Below are positions 7,599-41,364 of a DNA stretch of 64,000 nucleotides, piece by piece. Every line of letters begins with the position of its first letter. Position 1 is the first letter of the stretch. A model generated the notes under the pieces. It was not told the DNA's origin, made no database searches, and worked only from the letters and a program-made list of their open reading frames with translations. Source of the stretch: a virus. The stretch is taken from positions 98,300-162,299 of IMG/VR virus record IMGVR_UViG_3300028394_000044. One strand, 5' to 3'. The position numbers and the translations under genes are program-made.

Positions 7599-7985
7599 TT
7601 ACCACAAGACGTGGTTATCGCCCCATTCCCTTATGTGAGCACCTCGTTCCCTCATTGAATCGATGGTTTCATCCGCTTCCTTATCCAGAAGGTCTTTAAT
7701 ATAATTGACCTCAGCATAGGATAATTCGAACCATTCGCCTTTAATTTTCCTCTTAGAGTAATTCTTATGTAAATACAATTCAACGTCATATGGTTCTGGA
7801 ATTTGAGGTGAGATATATTCTATACCCAACTGCACCCAATTTCCAGTATTCAAAGTTGACAGGCGTTTGGCTACACCTTTATTGCTTTTGGAGACACCAA
7901 TTTTGAATGGCCATGTTCCAGTTCCACTAGTCCAATCTTTGTGAGGTTTGATAGGTCCAATTAAGTATACGTGTCCAATGGCCAT
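7599..7985 (-). CDS. T5orf172/MUG113-like GIY-YIG domain protein
   Basis: HVYLIG, FKIGVSK, RLSTLNTGN and GEWFEL motifs. Confidence 0.8.
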   Translation of the reverse strand: MAIGHVYLIGPIKPHKDWTSGTGTWPFKIGVSKSNKGVAKRLSTLNTGNWVQLGIEYISPQIPEPYDVELYLHKNYSKRKIKGEWFELSYAEVNYIKDLLDKEADETIDSMRERGAHIREWGDNHVLW

Positions 7986-7986
7986 A

Positions 7987-8151
7987 TCACTCCGACCAGT
8001 CGGAGATATACTCCTCAATGTTTTCAATCTCTGCACGAAGTACCTCAGGAGAAACCTTCTCCAATAGCTTTAGGATATCCGCTAGAGCATCTCCTAGGTC
8101 CATATCATACTGGTCTACCATATCAAGGTATTGTTGGGCTAATGTTTTCAT
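7987..8151 (-). CDS. Small acidic protein (54 aa, not in ORF track)
   Basis: GGAG RBS; MKTLAQQYLDMVDQ...; abuts the next gene. Confidence 0.6.
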   Translation of the reverse strand: MKTLAQQYLDMVDQYDMDLGDALADILKLLEKVSPEVLRAEIENIEEYISDWSE

Positions 8152-17314: not shown

Positions 17315-17389
17315 ACCCGGTTAGCCAAGCGGAAAGGCAATGGACTTTGACTCCATGATGCGTAGGTTCGATCCCTCCACCGGGTGCCA
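17315..17389 (+). tRNA. tRNA-Gln(TTG)
   Basis: Cloverleaf; ATGGA-CT TTG AC-TCCAT; encoded CCA. Confidence 0.92.
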
Positions 17390-17427
17390 TATTAAAATTC
17401 ATTTAATGAGTGAGTTTCAGTATGTCT

Positions 17428-17519
17428 GGAAAGTAATGCAGGTGGGTTGGTCCGCCGACCAGCCTTGAAAACTGGGTTCTCAGAAATGGGATGGGGTTCG
17501 ACTCCTCTGCTTTCCGCCA
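17428..17519 (+). tRNA. tRNA-Ser(TGA)
   Basis: Long variable arm; CT TGA AA loop; GCCA end. Confidence 0.88.
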
Positions 17520-17539
17520 ATTTTTAAGGAGTGAATTAT

Positions 17540-17920
17540 ATGTTGTGTGTAAATTTTGAATCCCTATTAGGGAAAGTTTTAAAAGAAGTTGATGTTGATA
17601 ATGATAACATCAAATTTGTTACTGTTGATGGTGAAGTGTACAACATGTACCATGACCAAGATTGTTGCGAGTCTGTTTCAGTTGAGTCCGTTGTTGGTGA
17701 TGTTCAAGACCTGATCGGTGTTCCATTGCTTGTTGCTGAAGAGTCATCGAGCAATGAAAATCCAGAAGGTGCTGAAGTGCCAAATTACCAAGATTCGTTC
17801 ACATGGACATTCTACAAGCTAGCCACTATCAAAGGTTATGTTGACATTCGTTGGTATGGTGAGTCTAATGGCTACTATTCCGAAAGCGTTTCATTGCATA
17901 AAGTGGTAAAAGGAGTTTGA
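17540..17920 (+). CDS. Conserved hypothetical phage protein
   Basis: HDQDCCESV...WYGESNGYYS. Confidence 0.7.
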   Translation: MLCVNFESLLGKVLKEVDVDNDNIKFVTVDGEVYNMYHDQDCCESVSVESVVGDVQDLIGVPLLVAEESSSNENPEGAEVPNYQDSFTWTFYKLATIKGYVDIRWYGESNGYYSESVSLHKVVKGV

Positions 17921-17921
17921 T

Positions 17922-18485
17922 ATGCCATCAGTATTTCTCGTAAGTGACACACACTTTGGTCATGCCGGTGTATGTCGTTTCACAGATTCTAAAACAAATG
18001 AAAAGATTAGACCATGGACGGATCCAAATGAAATGGATGAAGAAATGGTCAAACGTTGGAATGAAACCGTTGGTCCAAAAGATAAAGTGTATCATCTGGG
18101 TGACGTTGTTATTAACCGTAAATCACTTAGCATTATGCATAGGCTGAATGGTGACAAAGTTCTCATCCGAGGTAACCATGATATTTTTCGTGATGATGAA
18201 TATCGAGTACACTTTCGGGAACTCCGTGCATATCACGTAATGAACGGAATGATTCTTTCTCATATTCCACTTCACCCTGAAAGTCTTGGTCGATTTGGAG
18301 TTAACATTCATGGACACCTTCATACAGGACGTGTTATGAAGGATGAAAAGATTGATACAAGGTACCATTGTGTATGTGTAGAACAAACTGATTTTACTCC
18401 TATTCTTTTTGAAAATGTTATCAAACGAATCAAAGAAGAAGGTGGTGAAGTAGGATTTAGGAACGGTAACGGTCCTACAATGTAA
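17922..18485 (+). CDS. Calcineurin-like metallophosphoesterase
   Basis: SDTHFGH, HLGD, GNHD and HGHLH. Confidence 0.9.
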   Translation: MPSVFLVSDTHFGHAGVCRFTDSKTNEKIRPWTDPNEMDEEMVKRWNETVGPKDKVYHLGDVVINRKSLSIMHRLNGDKVLIRGNHDIFRDDEYRVHFRELRAYHVMNGMILSHIPLHPESLGRFGVNIHGHLHTGRVMKDEKIDTRYHCVCVEQTDFTPILFENVIKRIKEEGGEVGFRNGNGPTM

Positions 18486-18488
18486 TTT

Positions 18489-18578
18489 GGAGAGTGGGCA
18501 GGACGGTAATGCAGTAGATTGCTAATCTATAGACTATAGTAATATGGTCACAGGGTTCGACTCCCTGACTCTCCACCA
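18489..18578 (+). tRNA. tRNA-Ser(GCT)
   Basis: GTAGA-TT GCT AA-TCTAT; long variable arm; CCA. Confidence 0.92.
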
Positions 18579-18584
18579 AAAAAT

Positions 18585-18660
18585 GTAGGTGTGACCCGAA
18601 AGGCTAGGGAACAGATTGCAAATCTGTTTTATGCAGGTTCGATTCCTGTCACCTACTCCA
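18585..18660 (+). tRNA. tRNA-Cys(GCA)
   Basis: ACAGA-TT GCA AA-TCTGT; TCCA end. Confidence 0.92.
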
Positions 18661-18768
18661 GTTGTTAAAAAACAACAACATGCAAATAGATGTTGACAAA
18701 ACCTCTGGTTGTGTTATACTCTATTCATGAGTTGAGAAATCAACATGTTCTTTAAAAATTTGTAGAGT
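18661..18768 (+). promoter_or_regulatory. GTTG-N8-CAAC palindrome plus tRNA operon promoter P2 with boxA-like leader
   Basis: TTGACA 18693; TATACT 18715; TGTTCTTTAAAAATTTGTAGAGT at 18746. Confidence 0.75.
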
Positions 18769-18775
18769 TTAATTT

Positions 18776-18850
18776 ACTCCGTTCGTCTATCGGTTAGGAC
18801 ACCGGGTTTTCAACCCGATAAGACCAGTTCGATTCTGGTACGGAGTACCA
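18776..18850 (+). tRNA. tRNA-Glu(TTC)
   Basis: Cloverleaf; TT TTC AA loop; CCA. Confidence 0.9.
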
Positions 18851-18967
18851 TATTAAAACATATTACAGGTTGGGCAGTATTCGCGGTGCTGCTATTTGGG
18901 TATTATGAACTAGATAATTACTAGCATCGATACTAAGATACGTAGTATGTTTTAATATGGTAGAAAT

Positions 18968-19042
18968 GCCTTGGTAGCTTAATGGTAAAGCAGGCGACTC
19001 ATAATCGCTTGAGTGGGAGTTCAATTCTCTCTCAAGGCACCA
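18968..19042 (+). tRNA. tRNA-Ile2(CAT)
   Basis: GGCGA-CT CAT AA-TCGCT anticodon arm as in bacterial lysidine tRNA-Ile2. Confidence 0.85.
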
Positions 19043-19048
19043 AGATTC

Positions 19049-19123
19049 GGGGGTATAACTTAACGGCTAAAGTATCTGGCTTTTAACCAGGTAATCCGAG
19101 TTCGATTCTCGGTACCCCTACCA
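19049..19123 (+). tRNA. tRNA-Lys(TTT)
   Basis: CT TTT AA loop; CCA. Confidence 0.92.
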
Positions 19124-19134
19124 AAACAATTTTA

Positions 19135-19216
19135 GGAGATGATGCTCTAATGGTAGGGCAGCGGACTGTAACTCCGTGGCTTCGGCAAGTAGGTTCGATT
19201 CCTACCATCTCCACCA
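19135..19216 (+). tRNA. tRNA-Tyr(GTA)
   Basis: GCGGA-CT GTA AC-TCCGT; variable arm; CCA. Confidence 0.92.
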
Positions 19217-19289
19217 AGCCGAACAGTGTAGCAATACACTCAATGTTTGTTAGTTTTAATGGGTACGTATAGAAACTATCACAAATTTA

Positions 19290-19364
19290 GGTGCGTTCAT
19301 ATAATGGTCATTATCTCGGATTGTCTATCCGAAGACGGGGGTTCGATTCCCCCACGCATCGCCA
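19290..19364 (+). tRNA. tRNA-Asp(GTC)
   Basis: TCGGA-TT GTC TA-TCCGA; GCCA. Confidence 0.92.
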
Positions 19365-19366
19365 AT

Positions 19367-19445
19367 TTTGTGGCAAGGAAAGTAAAAGGAGAATGGGCAA
19401 CGAAAAGGATTTGAAGCCTTTAGTGGATACCTCACCTGCCATAAA
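19367..19445 (+). ncRNA. Candidate small structured RNA between tRNAs
   Basis: Closing stem TTTGTGGCA/TGCCATAAA with internal hairpins. Confidence 0.35.
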
Positions 19446-19455
19446 TTTTTATTAT

Positions 19456-19531
19456 TCCCCAATAGCTCAGTTGGTAGAGCGTTCCGCTGTTAACGGAAAT
19501 GTCGGTGGGTCGGAGCCATCTTGGGGAGCCA
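19456..19531 (+). tRNA. tRNA-Asn(GTT), atypical T-loop
   Basis: TTCCG-CT GTT AA-CGGAA; T-loop reads GTCGGAG. Confidence 0.85.
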
Positions 19532-19534
19532 AAT

Positions 19535-19745
19535 TTTGTAAGTGTCAGCAAGTGAAGTCACGCTATTCAGTATTCTTCAAAGGTACTGTATAGTAGAAGG
19601 TTTTGGGTTCAACTCCCACCCGCGGGGAACTGCGGAGGTCTGTAAAGGAGACAAACTGGATGAATCCCAAGTGACGTACCGAGTCCCGGCCGGCTTAATT
19701 ACACGGGTGAATGGTTGCTATAACGATGGGGCAACAACTTACAAA
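19535..19745 (+). ncRNA. Unidentified multi-branched structured RNA (about 210 nt)
   Basis: Terminal stem TTTGTAAGT/ACTTACAAA; GTCAC/GTGAC; several GC-rich hairpins. Confidence 0.65.
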
Positions 19746-19754
19746 TTCAACATT

Positions 19755-19830
19755 GCCCCGGTGACGGAATGGTATACGTGTTGGTCTTAGAAACCAAATT
19801 TTAGGAGTTCGAGTCTCCTCTGGGGCACCA
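19755..19830 (+). tRNA. tRNA-Leu(TAG), short variable arm
   Basis: TTGGT-CT TAG AA-ACCAA; ACCA. Confidence 0.9.
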
Positions 19831-19884
19831 AATATCGCCGTGACTGGTGGCGTACAATGAGATAAGTAATCAGTTAACCAAATT

Positions 19885-19960
19885 TGGGCTGTTAGTGATA
19901 ATGGTAGCACAGTGGCTTTGCAAGCCTCGGGCAGGAGTTCGATTCTCCTACGGTCCACCA
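19885..19960 (+). tRNA. tRNA-Ala(TGC)
   Basis: G3:U70 pair; TT TGC AA loop. Confidence 0.9.
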
Positions 19961-19966
19961 AATTTA

Positions 19967-20041
19967 GCTCTTAAAGCATTGCTGGCGATGCACGGGTCTT
20001 GTAAGCCTGAGAATACAGTTCGATTCTGTATGAGAGCACCA
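19967..20041 (+). tRNA. tRNA-Thr(TGT)
   Basis: CT TGT AA loop; CCA. Confidence 0.9.
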
Positions 20042-20048
20042 AGTTTTT

Positions 20049-20122
20049 CTCCGATTAGTGAAATGGCATCACCCGTGGTTTGGGACCATGAAGCGCAAGT
20101 TCGATTCTTGCATCGGAGACCA
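20049..20122 (+). tRNA. tRNA-Pro(TGG)
   Basis: C1:G72; TT TGG GA loop; ACCA. Confidence 0.9.
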
Positions 20123-20130
20123 GTTTTTAT

Positions 20131-20201
20131 TGCGGGTATTCAGGGTATCGGTAAGTCTCATAAGCTCTACCTAGTGGGTTCGAATCCCACACCCGCTACC
20201 A
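20131..20201 (+). tRNA. Atypical initiator-like tRNA-Met(CAT)
   Basis: T1:T72 mismatch; CT CAT AA loop; good T arm; reduced D arm; 71 nt. Confidence 0.6.
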
Positions 20202-20206
20202 GTTTT

Positions 20207-20281
20207 GGTGATATAGTTCAATGGTAGAACACCACCTTCATACGGTGACTGTTGGGAGTTCAAGTCTCTCTATCACCACCA
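20207..20281 (+). tRNA. tRNA-Met(CAT), elongator
   Basis: CACC-TT CAT AC-GGTG; ACCA. Confidence 0.85.
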
Positions 20282-20286
20282 AATAT

Positions 20287-20364
20287 GCGTCCTTAGTTCA
20301 ACTGGATAGAGCACCGGGCTACGAACCCGTGAGGTTGGGAGTTCGAATCTCTCAGGACGCACCA
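20287..20364 (+). tRNA. tRNA-Arg(ACG)
   Basis: CGGG-CT ACG AA-CCCG; CCA. Confidence 0.92.
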
Positions 20365-20365
20365 A

Positions 20366-20590
20366 GACCCGTCAGAGTAACGTCTGGCTACTGTGACACG
20401 CAGGAAGTGAAGTGAGTTCGTTACTCAAGTGTGGTACTACTCTTACCGAAGTAGCGTTGGCAATACGAGAATTCTTTTTGGTTGGGAAGCGGGTGGAAGG
20501 TGTGTGTTACAAGGCGTTGAACCGAACGGGGAGCCGAAGTAACAACGGTGCGAGCTGACACACTAAATTACCGCCGCAGAAAGAAAGCAT
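20366..20590 (+). ncRNA. Unidentified structured RNA (about 225 nt)
   Basis: Nested stems GCTAC/GTAGC, TTCTTT/AAAGAA, GTGTGT/ACACAC and GTTAC/GTAAC; GC-rich. Confidence 0.6.
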
Positions 20591-20593
20591 TAT

Positions 20594-20669
20594 ACCCTAA
20601 TAGCTCAGCGGTAGCAGCACCGTCTTGATAAGGCGTAGGTCGGTGGTTCGAATCCACCTTAGGGTACCA
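20594..20669 (+). tRNA. tRNA-Ile(GAT)
   Basis: TT GAT AA loop; ACCA. Confidence 0.92.
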
Positions 20670-20701
20670 GATTGCACAGTAGTTCTCAAGACTGATGTTA
20701 T

Positions 20702-20709
20702 TATAAATA
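20702..20709 (+). promoter_or_regulatory. T4-type late promoter
   Basis: TATAAATA upstream of the HNH gene. Confidence 0.7.
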
Positions 20710-20726
20710 TCCATAAAGGAGATTGT

Positions 20727-21077
20727 ATGAAGACAATTACATCAGGAAAAAACTACCAAGGATTATTAAAGTTTAATAAGAGTAGAAAATTTCCAACAGA
20801 AGATATTCTTGTTGAAAACTCAAGTTATGCTAGACATAACTTAAAAAGAAGAATATTGGAAGAAAAATTAATTCAATATAAATGTGCATGTTGTAATCTT
20901 GATAATGAATGGAATGATAAGCCAATTGTTTTACAATTGGATCATATTAACGGTGTAAACAATGACCATAGATTGGAAAATTTAAGGTTTCTTTGTCCAA
21001 ATTGCCATTCACAACAAGACACATATGCAGCTAAAAATAGGTTTAATCCGAAAAGAAAACCTAAAAAATATGTATAA
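20727..21077 (+). CDS. HNH endonuclease (possibly homing)
   Basis: CACC..LQLDHINGVNNDHRLENLRFLCPNCH; AAGGAG RBS. Confidence 0.9.
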   Translation: MKTITSGKNYQGLLKFNKSRKFPTEDILVENSSYARHNLKRRILEEKLIQYKCACCNLDNEWNDKPIVLQLDHINGVNNDHRLENLRFLCPNCHSQQDTYAAKNRFNPKRKPKKYV

Positions 21078-21078
21078 A

Positions 21079-21152
21079 ATCTCCGTAGTGTAATGGCAGC
21101 ATAAGGATCTCCAAAATCTTTGGTGGGAGTTCGAATCTCTCCGGGGATGCCA
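21079..21152 (+). tRNA. tRNA-Trp(CCA)
   Basis: AGGAT-CT CCA AA-ATCTT; GCCA. Confidence 0.9.
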
Positions 21153-21172
21153 AGTTTTTAAAGGTTATCAAT

Positions 21173-21661
21173 ATGAAAAAATTCGATATAAACGAAGTCA
21201 AAGAATTCCTTGCAAAACAAGGACCAAACACCAAAGTATATCTTGGTGCTGACTCTGAAAGAATCAGAGTGAATGAAGTTTGGTATGCTGACTACGCTTT
21301 AGCTGTTGTAGTTCATATTGATGGATGTCATGGCTGTAAGATTTTTGGTTTTGTTGACCGTGAATTAGATTACGACCATAAGAAAAGTAAACCTGCTATG
21401 CGTCTAATGACAGAAGTGTATAAGGTTTCGGAATTGTTTCAATCATTACAAGATGTGTTGGAAGATTATCATGTTGAAGTCCATTTGGATTTAAATAAAT
21501 CAGATGAGTTCGGTAGTTCTTGTGTTGTTCAGCAAGCGATTGGTTATATCAAAGGTACATGTAACATGACACCAATGGTTAAACCTGATGCGCCTGCGGC
21601 TTCATTCTGTGCAGATCGTTTAAAACGGATTTTAGCAGAACAAGAATTAGCGACTACATAA
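21173..21661 (+). CDS. RNase H-like YkuK (DUF458) family protein
   Basis: YLGADS, EVHLDLN and KPDAPAASFCAD. Confidence 0.8.
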   Translation: MKKFDINEVKEFLAKQGPNTKVYLGADSERIRVNEVWYADYALAVVVHIDGCHGCKIFGFVDRELDYDHKKSKPAMRLMTEVYKVSELFQSLQDVLEDYHVEVHLDLNKSDEFGSSCVVQQAIGYIKGTCNMTPMVKPDAPAASFCADRLKRILAEQELATT

Positions 21662-21667
21662 TATTAT

Positions 21668-21741
21668 GCGGGATTAGTTTAGTGGTAAAACGTCATCCTT
21701 CCAAGTTGAAGTTGCGAGTTCGATTCTCGCATCCCGCTCCA
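21668..21741 (+). tRNA. tRNA-Gly(TCC)
   Basis: GCGGG acceptor; CT TCC AA loop; TCCA. Confidence 0.9.
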
Positions 21742-21821
21742 TATACAAACACATTTTGATGCCTATAAGATTGTAGATTTGATCGCCTACGATACGGTGC
21801 GTGATGAGTGTGTTTCTATAT

Positions 21822-21895
21822 GCGGGTATGATGTAAAGGTAGCCTGTGACCTTGCCAAGGTTAGTGTGAGAGTTCGATTCTCTCTACCCGCTCCA
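21822..21895 (+). tRNA. tRNA-Gly(GCC)
   Basis: TGACC-TT GCC AA-GGTTA; TCCA. Confidence 0.9.
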
Positions 21896-21916
21896 ATCAA
21901 TTAAAGGTGGTTCATT

Positions 21917-22525
21917 ATGGTTATTGTTCCTGTTTTTGCAACAAATATTTTTATGACAGAGTTAAAACCTGAAGACTATGAATTGGTCCAGGAAGAATTG
22001 CAAAGAGTGTATGATGATAATACACAAAATAAATTATTTAATGATCCGTGGAATAACGGACGTATGAGATTAAGTCACAATGCATTTGAAGGTGATATTA
22101 TAAAAAAATATGACCTCAAAAATTTCAAACGAGTTCTGACTGATGCTGTTGCTTTCTTAAATGAAGATGGTAAAGTTAGAGCGTTTAATGTTGTGAATTC
22201 TTGGATGACAAGCCTGAAAAAAGGCATGTATGCTCATAATCATCAACATATTGCCCCGTATGGTTCGCATATTTCTGGTGTCTATTACTTTAAAACGGCA
22301 GAAGACGATTCACCAATTGTTTTTGAGAATCCAAATTTGTCTAATGTTTGTTTTAGTCCAGCATTAGGTTCTGAAGAAACACTATCATGTAAACCTATTC
22401 AAGGACACTTGCTGATGTTCCCATCTTGGTTGAGACACTATATTGAAACTCAACTTGATGACCGAGAAAGAGTTAGTGTTTCTTTTACTTTAGGTCTAGA
22501 AAATCCATATCTCGATAAATGGTAA
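21917..22525 (+). CDS. 2OG-Fe(II) oxygenase (TIGR02466-like)
   Basis: HNHQH, ISGVYY, FPSWLRH and RVSVSF. Confidence 0.85.
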   Translation: MVIVPVFATNIFMTELKPEDYELVQEELQRVYDDNTQNKLFNDPWNNGRMRLSHNAFEGDIIKKYDLKNFKRVLTDAVAFLNEDGKVRAFNVVNSWMTSLKKGMYAHNHQHIAPYGSHISGVYYFKTAEDDSPIVFENPNLSNVCFSPALGSEETLSCKPIQGHLLMFPSWLRHYIETQLDDRERVSVSFTLGLENPYLDKW

Positions 22526-22529
22526 TTAT

Positions 22530-22604
22530 GGAGTTGTTAGTTTAGTGGTAAAACCGCGGGTTGTGATTCCGCTATCACGGGTTCGATTCCCGTACTTCTC
22601 CCCA
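22530..22604 (+). tRNA. tRNA-His(GTG)
   Basis: G-1:C73; TT GTG AT loop. Confidence 0.88.
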
Positions 22605-22607
22605 AGC

Positions 22608-22682
22608 GCCTTGTTAACTCAGCGGTAGAGTGTCTCCCTTACAAGGAGAAGGTCGGCGGTTCGATCCCGTCACAAGGTACCA
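22608..22682 (+). tRNA. tRNA-Val(TAC)
   Basis: TCTCC-CT TAC AA-GGAGA; ACCA. Confidence 0.92.
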
Positions 22683-22686
22683 ATTT

Positions 22687-22760
22687 GCTCCCATAGTACA
22701 GTGATAGTACACGCCCTTGGTACGGGTGAGACCTGAGTTTGATTCTCGGTGAGAGCACCA
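22687..22760 (+). tRNA. tRNA-Thr(GGT)
   Basis: CGCCC-TT GGT AC-GGGTG; ACCA. Confidence 0.88.
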
Positions 22761-22765
22761 ATTTA

Positions 22766-22841
22766 GCAACTTTAGCTGATGTGGTCATAGCGGTGGTCTG
22801 AAGAACCATTGAAGTAGGTTCGATTCCTACAGGTTGCACCA
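22766..22841 (+). tRNA. tRNA-Phe(GAA)
   Basis: GTGGT-CT GAA GA-ACCAT; ACCA. Confidence 0.9.
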
Positions 22842-22848
22842 AAATTCT

Positions 22849-22924
22849 GCGGATATAGCGCAAAGGTAGAGGCAAGGGACTTAAAATCCCTCAAGTCTGG
22901 GTTCGAATCCCAGTATCCGCACCA
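22849..22924 (+). tRNA. tRNA-Leu(TAA), short variable arm
   Basis: AGGGA-CT TAA AA-TCCCT; ACCA. Confidence 0.9.
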
Positions 22925-22927
22925 TAT

Positions 22928-23004
22928 GCCCTTGTAGCCCAATTGGTAGAGGCAATGGATTCAAAATCCATTCAGTGTCGGTTCGAATCTGACCAAGGGT
23001 ACCA
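22928..23004 (+). tRNA. tRNA-Leu(CAA), short variable arm
   Basis: ATGGA-TT CAA AA-TCCAT; ACCA. Confidence 0.9.
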
Positions 23005-23010
23005 CACAAT

Positions 23011-23085
23011 GTCTCTATAGTTCAACGGACAGAATAGGGACCTCCTAAGTCCCGGATACAGGTTCGATTCCTGTTGGAGACACCA
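23011..23085 (+). tRNA. tRNA-Arg(CCT)
   Basis: GGGAC-CT CCT AA-GTCCC; ACCA. Confidence 0.92.
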
Positions 23086-23130
23086 AATGGTAAACATGTA
23101 AATAATATATTAACTCTACAAATTTTTTAT

Positions 23131-23205
23131 CTGGCGTTCGTTCAATGGATAGGACAAGATTCTTCTAAAGTCTTTATAGAGGTTCGATTCCTCTACGCCG
23201 GACCA
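23131..23205 (+). tRNA. tRNA-Arg(TCT)
   Basis: AGATT-CT TCT AA-AGTCT; ACCA. Confidence 0.9.
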
Positions 23206-23894
23206 CCAATATAATATTTTTTTAAAACGGCATCAACTAAACTATCGATACTGTTTACGATTTGCACGCCATTACATTCGACTTCTCTAATCGCTAATGG
23301 TATCTCTGTGCAACCTAATACAATAGATTTTGCACCACGCTCTATTAAACTTTGTATTACAATCATCAATATTGAATGTGCTTGATCTATATTTCCACCC
23401 TTGATTAAATCTATTGCATGTTGAACTAGTGTGTCCATTTCTACTATAGAAGGCACAATACAATCCCATCCAAATTTATTCAACATGTATTGATACAACC
23501 CGAATTCGATTGTGCTTTGGGTTCCTATAATTCCTATGGTTGTATTACTGATGCCTATGGAATTTAATGTATCTGCAACACTATCTACAATGTGTATAAT
23601 GGGAACCTCTAATTTAATTAGTTCCTGATACCAAAAATGTGCGGTGTTACATGGTATGACTATTAAATCACAACCTGTAAATTTCAATGCTTGTACACCT
23701 TCTATCAAGTAGGGTAATGGCTCATCATTGCCTTTTCGCATACTTGTGCTACGGTCTGGAATTCTTGGTTCATTCCAAAGAACAAATGGAATATGATCTT
23801 GATCTTTATTAGCAGGAGTTTTTTTAATTAATCTAGTTATAAACTCTGCACTTGCTGCTGGACCCATTCCACCCAAAACTCCCAACTTTTTCAT
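23193..23894 (-). CDS. Aspartate/glutamate racemase family (PLP-independent)
   Basis: MKKLGVLGGMGP; both catalytic cysteines present (IPCNTAH, LGCTEIP). Confidence 0.93.
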   Translation of the reverse strand: MKKLGVLGGMGPAASAEFITRLIKKTPANKDQDHIPFVLWNEPRIPDRSTSMRKGNDEPLPYLIEGVQALKFTGCDLIVIPCNTAHFWYQELIKLEVPIIHIVDSVADTLNSIGISNTTIGIIGTQSTIEFGLYQYMLNKFGWDCIVPSIVEMDTLVQHAIDLIKGGNIDQAHSILMIVIQSLIERGAKSIVLGCTEIPLAIREVECNGVQIVNSIDSLVDAVLKKYYIGGPA

Positions 23895-23955
23895 AACAGT
23901 ACAACCAGTAAAATAATTATTATGATGACACAGAATATAACAGAAGGAAGTCTCA

Positions 23956-24564
23956 TCATTTTTTAAATAATAAACTACTAGCAACATGCATCACAGCTTG
24001 CTCATTAGCAACCTCATCTGGGTCAGGTTTTGATTTCCATCCAACTGAAATTTGTCCAATAAATGTACCGGGTTCCGCAGGTACACTTATACGACACATA
24101 TATTTTACGCCTCTTTCAACATAAACGAATCCCATAAAACTTTGAGGTGTTAGGTAATCTTGACATGGTACTTTTCCTGACATCATTGAAATCACATCAT
24201 TATTATTGTCGTAATTTTTAGTCAGTAGACCAACATCTGTGCCATAGTAATCTTTTTCAATTCCACCGCTGCGAGTAGTAAAATAAACTAGCTTGCGCGT
24301 GTTTAATATTGTATTGACTTGAAATACTGCAATCAATTCCGCTTGGCTATATTTCAATATAAAATTTGAGGCTTTTTCATACTCTCCGTTCATATGCGGT
24401 AATGCTTTTTCGGCACGATAACTTGCCATAAATGCATCTTTTTCGGAATATAAAAACCAACCACCGAATCCAAATACACATAAAATTATAACCGCAAATA
24501 GGCGAAATGGACTCTCGCCTATCCAAGTCAATAAACTAAGAAGTATTTCCTTAGCTTTGTCCAC
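23956..24564 (-). CDS. Single-TM protein with GAF-like periplasmic domain, T4 holin T-like
   Basis: Amphipathic N-terminus, one TMD, C-terminal YMCRISVP..FIGQISVGW resembling the T4 T periplasmic domain. Confidence 0.5.
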   Translation of the reverse strand: MDKAKEILLSLLTWIGESPFRLFAVIILCVFGFGGWFLYSEKDAFMASYRAEKALPHMNGEYEKASNFILKYSQAELIAVFQVNTILNTRKLVYFTTRSGGIEKDYYGTDVGLLTKNYDNNNDVISMMSGKVPCQDYLTPQSFMGFVYVERGVKYMCRISVPAEPGTFIGQISVGWKSKPDPDEVANEQAVMHVASSLLFKK

Positions 24565-25825
24565 CGATAGCTACCTCTTTATCACAGACAAATGCTGTTA
24601 CTGCAATATTACCGTGTACATGACTTGCTGTGCGAATCATATCCATTAATGGATCAACTGCAATTAGCAAAACTAATACAGCTTCACTTGGTAGTTTTAA
24701 CAAGTCACAAACAACTGCCACGGTTGCAACAGTAAGGATACCTGTTGTACCTGCACTTGCCAAACCAGCCAATATACTACCAAACAGTACTACTAACAAT
24801 CCCACAGCACCTAATGGTGAATCATAAATGTTAGCAATAAACACTGTAGCAATCGCATAATAAACAATACTGCCAATTCTGTTGACTGTAAAACTCAGCG
24901 GAACAGTTAGTTCAACACCACCTTTGTCAAAATGCAATCTGTGTAATGCTTCCTGTGCGTATGGAATACAAGCTAATGAACTGCGTGAACTAATAGCAAC
25001 AATCAATGTTTCTTTAGTTTCTTTAATAACAGTCATCAAACTCAACCCACTACGCATCCATATTACCACAGTACCTGCAATAACCACTAATACTCCACCA
25101 ACAAACTGTTGAAATACAAAATCAAACATGGTCATAAAGATGCCCACCCCAACTTTGCCAACTTGACTGCTAATCATTGCTAACAATGCGAATGGTAAGA
25201 AGTAGTTTAGGAATTTAAAGATACTGATACTTGCCTGTTGAACACTCTTTAATACTTCAACCAACATACGTTGACCTTCTGTTTGTAAATGCCCTAATGC
25301 AACACCAAAAATTAAACAGAAGATAACAATCTTCAAACTCTCACCATTGTTTAGTGTGTTGAAAATGTTTTCTGGAATAAATTTCTCTGCCATCTTACCT
25401 GCACTGATTGGAGGTGATGTTGGCATTGGCTCATGTAACGTGATGTTTAAATCAGTTCCTGTGTCCTTGTTGTTCACTAGTACACCAAATTCTGTTTTCT
25501 TTTGCGGAGTCATTTCTGTGCCTGTAACCAACACAGTTCCTACACCAATGACCGCGGCTAAGAACATACTTCCTATAAATCCAATAATAATTTTACGTAT
25601 CAGTGTTTCACTACCTTCTTTTTGTAATAGTCCTATAATACCAACTAGAATAGTTGCCAACAAGAATGGTAGCACAACTACTTTTAATAAACTGATGTAG
25701 ATACTACCAATGCTGTCAAGGTTCATACTAAACTCAGGGGTATAAACTCCACCAAGAATACCCAGTACAATTGAACCAAGAATAGTCCACGGACTAGTTA
25801 AGAAGGTTTTCAAGTGGGAGATCAT
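24551..25825 (-). CDS. Dicarboxylate/amino acid:cation symporter (DAACS family), atypical motifs
   Basis: IPENIF, SSRSSLACIP (HP1), LASAG (HP2) and DPLMDMIRT (TM8). Confidence 0.9.
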   Translation of the reverse strand: MISHLKTFLTSPWTILGSIVLGILGGVYTPEFSMNLDSIGSIYISLLKVVVLPFLLATILVGIIGLLQKEGSETLIRKIIIGFIGSMFLAAVIGVGTVLVTGTEMTPQKKTEFGVLVNNKDTGTDLNITLHEPMPTSPPISAGKMAEKFIPENIFNTLNNGESLKIVIFCLIFGVALGHLQTEGQRMLVEVLKSVQQASISIFKFLNYFLPFALLAMISSQVGKVGVGIFMTMFDFVFQQFVGGVLVVIAGTVVIWMRSGLSLMTVIKETKETLIVAISSRSSLACIPYAQEALHRLHFDKGGVELTVPLSFTVNRIGSIVYYAIATVFIANIYDSPLGAVGLLVVLFGSILAGLASAGTTGILTVATVAVVCDLLKLPSEAVLVLLIAVDPLMDMIRTASHVHGNIAVTAFVCDKEVAIGGQS

Positions 25826-26649
25826 TTTTTATCCTTTTTCTCTGCTTTATATCTGTCCATCAACTTTTTAGTGTCAATGTTGTTATATTCATTTCTAATA
25901 ACATAATTAACCATACTTAGCAATTGAATTGCTTTTGGATTAACTGCCACTGCAATATAGTCCACACTGTCAGAAATTGTAATTGTCTTGGTGCTGATTG
26001 CAGCATCTGGCTTTTCAAAACTAATTTTCTTAATTTCAAACTCGTCACGGTAAGCAGCAGCAATATCTCCACGTGTGACTCTATCAATGATTACATCCCA
26101 CTTTTCTTCAGGAAGAAATGTTGCATTAGGAAAATTAATTCGTGCAAATGTATCATAGCTGGAGTTTTTGATGAAACTTATTTTTCCATTGAAATCACGA
26201 ATCACTTGATATGTTTCTTTACCCTGACTGTTTTGACTGAGCCATAACCTGTTGATAATTAAACTCTGTCTTAGTTTGATATACGGCTCACTAAATCTAA
26301 CAACTTGTAAACGCGGACCAGTTACGGATAATTTACTAACCGCAATGTCTGCTCTACCGTCTCTAACTTGTTCCACAACCTCAGCAAAACTTTCTGCATC
26401 TCGTCTAAACTGAACAGGAACTCCAAGTAATACACCAATTCGTTGTGCAATTTCAACGTCAAGACCATGAATGTTATCTCCTTCTCCTGAAAAGAAAGGA
26501 GGAACATCTTTTTTGGTCATTGCCACAATAAGAACATTGGCTTTCTTAATTGCAGCGATATCTGGTGGCAAAGGAATAGTTGATGTGGGTAATTGTGCAT
26601 ACGTAGCCGCAATAAACAACAAAGCCAACAAAGCAAATAATTTTTTCAT
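25822..26649 (-). CDS. Periplasmic amino-acid binding protein (SBP family 3)
   Basis: Signal peptide; PPF..GLDVEIA, GRADIAVS..SVTGPR..FSEPY. Confidence 0.9.
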   Translation of the reverse strand: MKKLFALLALLFIAATYAQLPTSTIPLPPDIAAIKKANVLIVAMTKKDVPPFFSGEGDNIHGLDVEIAQRIGVLLGVPVQFRRDAESFAEVVEQVRDGRADIAVSKLSVTGPRLQVVRFSEPYIKLRQSLIINRLWLSQNSQGKETYQVIRDFNGKISFIKNSSYDTFARINFPNATFLPEEKWDVIIDRVTRGDIAAAYRDEFEIKKISFEKPDAAISTKTITISDSVDYIAVAVNPKAIQLLSMVNYVIRNEYNNIDTKKLMDRYKAEKKDKK

Positions 26650-26700
26650 TGAAAATTTCCATTAAACTTGATAAAATTGATAAAATTATCATATTTTTAG

Positions 26701-26708
26701 TATTTATA
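26701..26708 (-). promoter_or_regulatory. T4-type late promoter for the SBP-transporter-holin-racemase operon
   Basis: TATTTATA on + is TATAAATA on the minus strand, about 50 nt upstream of the SBP start. Confidence 0.7.
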
Positions 26709-40084: not shown

Positions 40085-40516
40085 ATGAATCGCTTATTAG
40101 CTTCACTATTTTTATTGAACGTATTGGTAGGTTGCGGCGGAGGTACTTCAACAGACGTATCAACACCACAAGTAGTAAAATTATCAACACAGTCACTTGC
40201 CGACATGCCTGCACCGTTTGTGGTTGGCCCACAACCACAAACACCCACTACGCCTCAGTTTGTTGTTGGACCTAGCGGAACTGTTCCCAGCCAGGTAGTT
40301 GTTGGACCTACACCACCTACTGTGACATTTGTAACAGGACCAGTAGTAGGACCAACGGTTACTATATCTCCGCCTGTAGTAATTGGACCCAGTGTTGTTC
40401 CACAACCTGTGATCAATTACTGCAGGGACGGTTTTATTGTTGGACCATGCACACCTTTGCCTACAACTTGTAGACCGGATGCCGGTGGGTTTGTAACGGG
40501 TCCATGCACACCGTAA
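40085..40516 (+). CDS. Pro-rich lipoprotein with (F/V)VVGP repeats
   Basis: Lipobox LVGC; about 8-9 VxGP repeats. Confidence 0.7.
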   Translation: MNRLLASLFLLNVLVGCGGGTSTDVSTPQVVKLSTQSLADMPAPFVVGPQPQTPTTPQFVVGPSGTVPSQVVVGPTPPTVTFVTGPVVGPTVTISPPVVIGPSVVPQPVINYCRDGFIVGPCTPLPTTCRPDAGGFVTGPCTP

Positions 40517-40591
40517 TAAATTTGACCACAAAGTTCTAATCACATGAGTTTGGTGGTTCTCACAAAACCATCACAGATAAAAAGGAGAAAA

Positions 40592-41146
40592 ATGCGAAGT
40601 AAACTTATACTTCTCAGTTTAGTACTCTCTTCCCTCATAGTAGGTCTTGGTATGGTAAATATTAGTCCACCTAAATTACCGTACAAAATTTCTTATGCCG
40701 ACCTCAATAAAGATAAACAGAAGCAAATTACTTGTTTAGCTGAAAATATTTATTTTGAAGCGGCACATGAGCCATTAGAGGGAAAGAAAGCGGTAGCATT
40801 TGTTACCATTAACCGAGTACAAACAGGCAACTATGCAAATACTATTTGTGAAGTTGTACAACAGAAAACGGGTACAGTATGTCAATTTTCTTGGTACTGT
40901 GTGAAAACAATTGCCGATAAACGCTTGACAATTAGAGACACTTCATTGTATAATAGCATCAGGCAGTTAGCAACAGACATAGTTGTTAATTATGAGTTCA
41001 TGGTAGATGTGACAAACGGTTCAACATATTACCATGCAGATTATGTAAATCCTCATTGGAACTTAAAGAAGATTCACCAGATTGGTCAACATATCTTCTA
41101 CAAGAACCACAAGGATAAAATTGATAAAACTAAGGAATTTATATGA
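40592..41146 (+). CDS. Cell wall hydrolase, SleB/Hydrolase_2 family
   Basis: CLAENIYFEA, AVAFVTINRV, QFSW, YHADY and IGQHIFY; N-terminal TM/signal. Confidence 0.9.
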   Translation: MRSKLILLSLVLSSLIVGLGMVNISPPKLPYKISYADLNKDKQKQITCLAENIYFEAAHEPLEGKKAVAFVTINRVQTGNYANTICEVVQQKTGTVCQFSWYCVKTIADKRLTIRDTSLYNSIRQLATDIVVNYEFMVDVTNGSTYYHADYVNPHWNLKKIHQIGQHIFYKNHKDKIDKTKEFI

Positions 41147-41364
41147 CTAAGAACTATGAAATCGTAACATTGATTATATGTTTATCAGTGATTATTGCGG
41201 GTTTAATTGCCGGCACTTTCATCTACAATATCAATGATAGAAACAACATGGCACAAAATATGGAATCGGCAATCGCAAAAGGTATTGATCCACTTTCAAT
41301 CAAGTGTGCATATGAGACCAATGCCAATCCAGTTTGTATCACCATGGCAGCTTCACGCAAATGA
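41143..41364 (+). CDS. Small membrane-anchored protein
   Basis: N-terminal TM; overlaps the hydrolase stop. Confidence 0.6.
   Translation: MTKNYEIVTLIICLSVIIAGLIAGTFIYNINDRNNMAQNMESAIAKGIDPLSIKCAYETNANPVCITMAASRK

Follow-up and report, generated by a model that had tools for sequence, protein, structure and literature searches.

A candidate amino-acid uptake and racemization operon enclosing a holin-T-like gene in a predicted T4-like phage from fresh water

Bases 98300-162299 of the virus record IMGVR_UViG_3300028394_000044, which form the right-hand end of a complete record of 162,299 bp with terminal repeats (this 64,000-nucleotide stretch is hereafter called the window), harbor a compact minus-strand cassette in which genes for a periplasmic solute-binding protein (SBP), a transporter of the DAACS/SDF family and a racemase enclose a gene for a membrane protein resembling holin T of phage T4 (Table 1). 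The reading that we favor, and hold to be reasonably probable, is that of a captured aspartate/cysteate uptake and racemization operon serving as a late auxiliary metabolic module, in which a T-type lysis gene is embedded and co-transcribed. An initial annotation of the window had placed the same four genes at 23193-26708 and had read them as a D-amino-acid system for lysis timing or phage-phage communication, with late nutrient scavenging as an alternative. Location and gene assignments agree with ours; a fifth gene that it overlooked, a hydrophobic micro-open reading frame (micro-ORF), lies between the membrane protein gene and the racemase gene; and nutrient scavenging fits better than signaling, since the SBP, transporter and racemase genes (hereafter, the trio) occur as a stand-alone uptake/racemase operon in bacteria.

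Table 1. Features of the cassette and of other regions of the window, with coordinates counted from the first base of the window (aa, amino acids; nt, nucleotides; PLP, pyridoxal phosphate).
Feature	Position	Strand	Size	Basis or remark
T4-type late-promoter-like motif, TATAAATA	26701-26708	-		52 nt upstream of the SBP start
Periplasmic family-3 solute-binding protein	25822-26649	-	275 aa	Pfam SBP_bac_3, 60.3 bits
Divergent DAACS/SDF transporter	24551-25825	-	424 aa	Pfam SDF, 219.8 bits, residues 13-413
Holin-T-like membrane protein	23956-24564	-	202 aa	GTG start; profile and fold comparison
Micro-ORF (MMRLPSV plus hydrophobic tail)	23891-23959	-	22 aa	ATGA overlaps at both ends
PLP-independent two-cysteine racemase, aspartate/cysteate type	23193-23894	-	233 aa	Pfam Asp_Glu_race, 134.8 bits
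tRNA array	17315-23205	+	27 genes	interrupted by two protein genes
Putative lysis cluster (lipoprotein, SleB-like hydrolase, small transmembrane protein)	40085-41364	+		sequence features

The virus itself is predicted to be a T4-like phage from fresh water: the window encodes T4-type baseplate proteins (baseplate wedge and T4_baseplate matches), and freshwater sample names are attached to the related contigs and to both matches among bacterial metagenome-assembled genomes (MAGs). Read 5' to 3' on the minus strand, the cassette runs SBP, SDF/DAACS, holin-T-like gene, micro-ORF and racemase. The SBP stop and the transporter start share an ATGA (4-nt overlap), the transporter and holin-T-like genes overlap by 14 nt, with AGAGG located 9 nt upstream of the GTG start of the latter, and the micro-ORF fills the 61 nt between the holin-T-like gene and the racemase ATG, its own ATG overlapping the TGA of the former and its TGA overlapping the ATG of the latter. 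A T4-type late-promoter-like motif precedes the SBP gene. Within the window TATAAATA is not enriched (5 seen and 7.8 expected, not significant), and the support for a late promoter, which the initial annotation had claimed, comes from the comparison of relatives: of 31 unique upstream regions among the relatives, 27 have [CT]ATAAATA in the 70 nt that precede the SBP gene, usually between -13 and -16, where 0.011 would be expected per 70 nt. This retention makes the cassette very probably a T4-type late operon, and its junctions point to one translationally coupled transcription unit, an arrangement that was proposed from the window and is conserved across dozens of phages.

The conservation was examined in 47 related IMG/VR loci, whose copies of the holin-T-like protein are 61-99% identical. 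The order SBP-SDF-holin-T-like-racemase is kept in every locus with enough flanking sequence apart from four (L031, L024, L040 and L042), while the flanks of the cassette differ between lineages; the genes thus stay together across phages, as the initial annotation had proposed to check. The exceptions are of two kinds. In L031 a holin-T-like gene 65% identical to the window copy stands without the trio, and in L024, L040 and L042 unrelated ORFs separate the holin-T-like gene from the racemase gene, so that this junction evidently tolerates insertions in three lineages. The inserted ORFs are glycine-rich with repeated SIGPGW-type motifs (L024 6629-7537, L040 6197-7241 and L042 6613-8748). Of the 47 loci, 23 (the window not counted) have the micro-ORF, which is 19-22 aa long with a conserved MRLP[ST]V and overlaps its two neighbors as it does in the window; it is cleanly absent from 18 others, in which the racemase gene directly adjoins the holin-T-like gene. 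This distribution argues that it is a real, dispensable gene, and its peptide may interact with the holin or with the transporter. Two further observations concern the relatives. A second holin-T-like paralogue, 25-26% identical, lies just downstream of the racemase gene in L044 (4268-4837) and L045 (7479-8048), where the two copies may form a holin/antiholin pair, and the 524,565-bp contig IMGVR_UViG_3300027749_002876 carries two cassette copies (L011 and L032, with 76% and 64% identity of the holin-T-like protein) about 190 kb apart; in this contig, related phages of about 170 kb each have probably been joined by chimeric or concatenated assembly.

The bacterial counterparts of the trio lack the holin-T-like gene. 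A scan with an alignment of the transporter revealed, in a Burkholderiales MAG (G001), an SBP gene (65% identity) directly before a DAACS gene (64%), and sampling of about 700 Pseudomonadota genomes found the transporter subfamily in seven, with an SBP gene immediately upstream of the transporter gene in all seven. In four of these genomes (G037, G393, G362 and G669) a racemase gene follows only 30-85 nt downstream of the transporter gene, which leaves no room for a holin-T-like gene; G001, G345 and G416 carry the SBP-DAACS pair without a racemase gene. In G037, identity to the phage proteins is 37% for the SBP, 35% for the SDF protein and 36% for the racemase. The bacterial operons share with the phage cassette the three families, their order, their tight spacing and the loss of the NMDG-type cation motif described below, at 35-65% identity, and differ from it in having neither holin-T-like gene nor micro-ORF, in their chromosomal setting beside a gene resembling a LysR-type regulator (the translation was judged by eye) and in base composition (GC 37% in G001 to 69%, compared with about 36% in the phage). 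A recently acquired ordinary bacterial operon had been named as an outcome that would speak against the communication proposal: the operon type is indeed bacterial, but the level of identity argues against recent capture. A literature search on SBP-dependent DAACS carriers or on the phage cassette returned nothing, and the bacterial SBP-DAACS-racemase operon type is apparently uncharacterized.

The neighbors of the G001 pair include cox genes and genes for type VI secretion; a holin-T-like gene and a racemase gene are both absent there. A 215-aa ORF that follows the pair was considered as a relative of the holin-T-like protein and proved unrelated. The same contig (contig 29; L059, L065) carries beside the pair an MscS-cNMP channel gene, another SBP fragment and two more SDF paralogues that have diverged strongly (27% and 24% identity), all just downstream of the type VI secretion cluster (VgrG, MORN protein).

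The phage SBP has a hydrophobic Sec-type signal peptide ending AYA|Q and matches amino-acid binding proteins in the PDB (best 4I62, E 1e-14), and we regard it as a predicted ordinary family-3 amino-acid binder. The initial annotation had remarked on the missing ATP-binding cassette (ABC) partner of this protein, and the observation extends to the whole 162-kb genome, which encodes no ABC permease (BPD_transp_1) and yields only sub-threshold P-loop matches to ABC_tran. When the DAACS protein is aligned to the aspartate transporter 9BGZ (E 1.6e-29), the substrate Asp/Arg pair is seen to be kept, while the cation-site motifs are changed from NMDG to NRIG in transmembrane helix 7 and from RTxxNVxGD to RTASHVHGN in transmembrane helix 8. 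The altered motifs are invariant in 13 phage homologues, and with the Na+-site motifs replaced, Na+ coupling is doubtful. The retained Asp and Arg, which we take from GltPh to hold the amino and side-chain acid groups of the substrate, make an acidic amino acid the likely substrate. The occurrence of a DAACS subfamily without the usual Na+-site residues, encoded directly after an SBP gene, suggests an undescribed class of binding-protein-dependent carriers. A tblastn search of 50,697 phage records with the transporter retrieved only bacterial DNA filed under phage names and no genuine phage DAACS protein, and the cassette DNA, searched against phage records, matched at a tRNA only. Cyanophage PstS is reportedly a phage-encoded, host-derived periplasmic binding protein that boosts uptake during infection; the SBP described here would resemble it in being a host-derived periplasmic binding protein in a phage genome, and the two cases differ in that PstS is said to use the host ABC transporter, whereas this phage encodes its own secondary carrier together with a downstream enzyme.

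The mechanically called racemase ORF of 264 aa, with its start at 23987, is too long; translation almost certainly begins at an ATG inside it, at 23894 (MKKLGVLGG...), which is the start used by all relatives. The protein aligns end to end with the aspartate racemase 1JFL of P. horikoshii (E 1.5e-42), an alignment that recovers both catalytic cysteines (in the motifs IPCNTAH and GCTEIP) and so substantiates the earlier assignment as a two-cysteine Asp/Glu racemase. On the NCBIfam model of the cysteate racemase CuyB the phage enzyme scores 217.1 bits with a cut-off of 190, and its bacterial and phage relatives, all above the cut-off, score 222-231 bits, the G037 enzyme among them at 231. CuyB of Bilophila wadsworthia, like the phage enzyme a two-cysteine, PLP-independent member of PF01177, works with the D-cysteate sulfo-lyase CuyA (PMC11193023), whereas in the phage genome a CuyA-type lyase or other PALP-family enzyme was sought and not found. 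Since the aspartate racemase 1JFL is almost as close to the phage enzyme as CuyB is, the substrate may be either aspartate or cysteate. The 3' end of the racemase gene is overlapped by 13 nt, on the opposite strand, by the last gene of the tRNA array, a tRNA-Arg(tct).

The replaced Na+-site residues make export or exchange by the carrier conceivable, and with them a different role for the cassette, in which D-Asp or D-Glu made by the racemase would be exported by a cation-uncoupled DAACS protein and be built into peptidoglycan or freed from it, weakening the wall or altering receptors before lysis, in step with the holin. Late expression would suit such remodeling, and in one relative a gene for a Peptidase_S11 D-Ala-D-Ala carboxypeptidase lies nearby. 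However, a periplasmic binding protein implies uptake rather than export, and the bacterial prototype, which has the same altered motifs and adjoins the LysR-type gene, looks catabolic. D-Asp in peptidoglycan is, moreover, a Gram-positive trait, and the host is probably a proteobacterium. We therefore consider wall remodeling very unlikely.

The holin-T-like protein, encoded by a single copy of its family in this genome, consists of an N-terminal helix, one transmembrane helix (residues 19-40) and a C-terminal alpha/beta GAF-like domain (residues 57-202). An AlphaFold model from a 63-member alignment reached a mean pLDDT of 96 and shows the single N-terminal transmembrane helix followed by a domain of about 150 aa with the fold of the T periplasmic domain. 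Foldseek comparisons of the model returned GAF domains as well as the T4 holin T periplasmic domain, which nominally ranks first among the PDB folds but ties with generic GAF domains. The viral models matched include proteins of Proteus and Serratia phages that are annotated as T-type holins. A profile-profile alignment (hhalign) of the 63 members with 26 PF11031 proteins gave a probability of 95.6% (E 1.1e-8) over 189 aligned columns, spanning positions 7-203 of 217 of the holin-T-like family and 32-238 of 241 of the T family and thus covering the transmembrane helix and the whole C-terminal domain; family-to-family alignment was needed, as the same profile matched against the single T4 T sequence gave a probability of 27%. 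C134 is invariant in the holin-T-like family and C157, which aligns with C175 of T, is found in at least 90% of members. Searched directly, PF11031 had no match at E<=1 in the holin-T-like protein, in the whole genome, among the 63 members or in Cronobacter phage S13, which carries a member of the family, while the same search recovers T4 t at 1.3e-119. Positive-inside counts were uninformative on the topology, likewise for the T family itself. From profile and fold we conclude that the protein is remotely homologous to holin T of T4 and is a putative lysis-timing membrane protein; the holin-like label given to it by the initial annotation is in this way supported, and holin activity itself would follow by homology.

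T4 holin T (gene t; PF11031; structures 6PSK, 6PX4 and 6PXE with the antiholin RI) and the holin-T-like protein are alike in length (200-218 aa), in their layout of a short N-terminal segment, one transmembrane helix and a C-terminal alpha/beta GAF-like domain, in the collinear full-length profile match, in the C175-equivalent cysteine, in a late promoter and in belonging to a T4-like genome whose endolysin gene lies elsewhere. They differ in sequence, at about 15% identity and with no PF11031 match, in the second cysteine, which is C134 here and is placed differently from the C207 equivalent of T, and in genomic setting, t following tail-fibre genes and the holin-T-like gene lying inside a transporter/racemase operon. 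The family is large: 593 metagenomic proteins were matched at E<=0.001 in a word-based search and 97 cluster representatives in an exhaustive one, and a scan of 185,579 bacterial and archaeal species genomes with the holin-T-like protein as query, a search that reaches close relatives only, found none. Distant members lie near lysis genes in five of the eight cases examined, namely directly after a GH108 endolysin gene, two genes before a lysozyme gene, five genes before a GH19 enzyme gene, directly after a GTA_holin_3TM gene (L067 262-1274) and directly after a LysC-like gene; in two T4-like phages the gene is near capsid genes. The L067 arrangement suggests that in some phages the holin-T-like protein may regulate another holin. 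The ICP1 holin TeaA was considered as an analogue of the holin-T-like protein and dropped, as it is a GTA_holin_3TM protein, and this genome encodes no member of that family.

Away from the cassette, at 40.1-41.4 kb, there is another cluster of putative lysis genes. It comprises a 143-aa lipoprotein with an LVGC lipobox and a proline-rich body, a SleB-like Hydrolase_2 protein (40544-41146, plus strand; Pfam 75.8 bits) with an N-terminal hydrophobic anchor, possibly of the signal-anchor-release type, and a 73-aa protein with a single transmembrane segment, whose gene overlaps the stop of the hydrolase gene. Judged by sequence features, it looks like a self-contained lysis set, with presumed roles for the two small proteins. 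Given this second set in the same genome, the holin-T-like protein may be a regulator rather than a hole-former. It could even be no lysis protein here, the 40.1-41.4 kb cluster bringing about lysis, and serve as a membrane-anchored GAF sensor subunit of the transporter, perhaps with the micropeptide. Its translational coupling to the transporter gene through the 14-nt overlap would then be explained, as would the presence of a putative endolysin, a small transmembrane protein and a lipoprotein elsewhere, and small membrane peptides are frequent modulators of transporters. Yet the bacterial transporter operons need no such subunit, the homology of the family with holin T extends along the entire protein, and its distant members are found in lysis cassettes, not beside transporters, all of which leaves a role as transporter subunit quite unlikely.

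The embedding of the holin-T-like gene could also mean that lysis timing is gated by an extracellular acidic (D-)amino acid, with the loaded SBP, the DAACS protein or the micropeptide taking the part that RI has in T4, or with the racemized amino acid itself acting on the periplasmic domain of the holin, so that D- or L-amino acids released from lysed neighbors would delay or advance lysis. Such a ligand-gated clock or phage-phage signal would account for a holin-T-like gene locked by overlapping codons between transporter and racemase genes in essentially every locus while the flanks vary, and for the paralogue just after the racemase gene in one relative (L044/L045). Further points in its favor are that binding of small ligands is common among GAF domains, that in T4 a periplasmic protein, RI, exerts its control of holin T on this very domain (PDB 6PSK/6PX4), and that no homologue of RI was identified here. 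The case is one of gene order, however, and the three metabolic genes form a self-standing bacterial operon without the holin-T-like gene, the family occurs in phages without the trio, including the 65%-identical relative L031, unrelated genes have been inserted between the holin-T-like and racemase genes in L024, L040 and L042, and the genome has its separate putative lysis cluster around the SleB-like hydrolase. That bacteria have the trio without the gene, and some phages the gene without the trio, speaks against a link that is obligatory but leaves room for a modulatory one. Complex prediction with the mature binding protein and residues 41-202 of the holin-T-like protein gave a score of 0.00, which, obtained without controls, is evidence neither way. 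The communication system proposed by the initial annotation is accordingly disfavored, and we regard gating of lysis by an amino acid, whether as clock or as signal, as unlikely; if true, it would amount to a small-molecule-gated lysis clock in abundant freshwater phages.

In the uptake and racemization reading that we prefer, the binding protein would hand an acidic amino acid of the aspartate/cysteate type to the DAACS carrier, and the racemase would interconvert the L and D forms in the cytoplasm, such that either enantiomer taken up could enter host metabolism; the phage would use the captured trio as an auxiliary metabolic module late in infection. The holin-T-like protein, with its GAF-like C-terminal domain facing the periplasm, would act in lysis timing as a holin or holin regulator, followed in about half of the lineage by the membrane peptide of about 20 aa, and the embedding of this gene of the phage's own in the trio would provide co-expression and not signal coupling. 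Several observations weigh against this reading. Scavenging of precursors would hardly be expected so late in infection, transport through a carrier with altered cation sites is ambiguous in mode and even in direction, and any benefit from cysteate would depend on the host, the phage having no CuyA-type lyase. The invariant 14-nt and 4-nt overlaps at the holin-T-like gene could reflect selection beyond co-expression. As to the lysis function, the protein has no sequence-level match in Pfam, NCBIfam or the PDB (phmmer), Pfam scans of all 63 aligned members likewise link it to no known family, the scores of generic GAF domains in the fold comparison come within 1 Z unit of that of T, and the set at 40.1-41.4 kb is a second candidate for lysis.

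Elsewhere in the window, the tRNA array is interrupted by an RNaseH-like gene (21173-21661) and a 2OG-Fe(II) oxygenase gene (21917-22525), and a T5orf172/MUG113 (GIY-YIG-like) ORF of the homing-endonuclease type lies at 7599-8036 on the minus strand, opposite to the adjoining genes.

For phage biology, the cassette represents an unusual auxiliary module, a complete secondary uptake system of binding protein and carrier plus a racemase. Should SBP_bac_3 proteins serve DAACS carriers devoid of Na+ sites, they would constitute a further class of binding-protein-dependent secondary transporters beside the TRAP and TTT systems. Lastly, the large, phage-only holin-T-like family, for which there is no Pfam model, would be a new branch of the known holin T family; it would supply a candidate lysis-timing gene for many uncultured T4-like and other phages and extend the T family well beyond enterobacterial phages.

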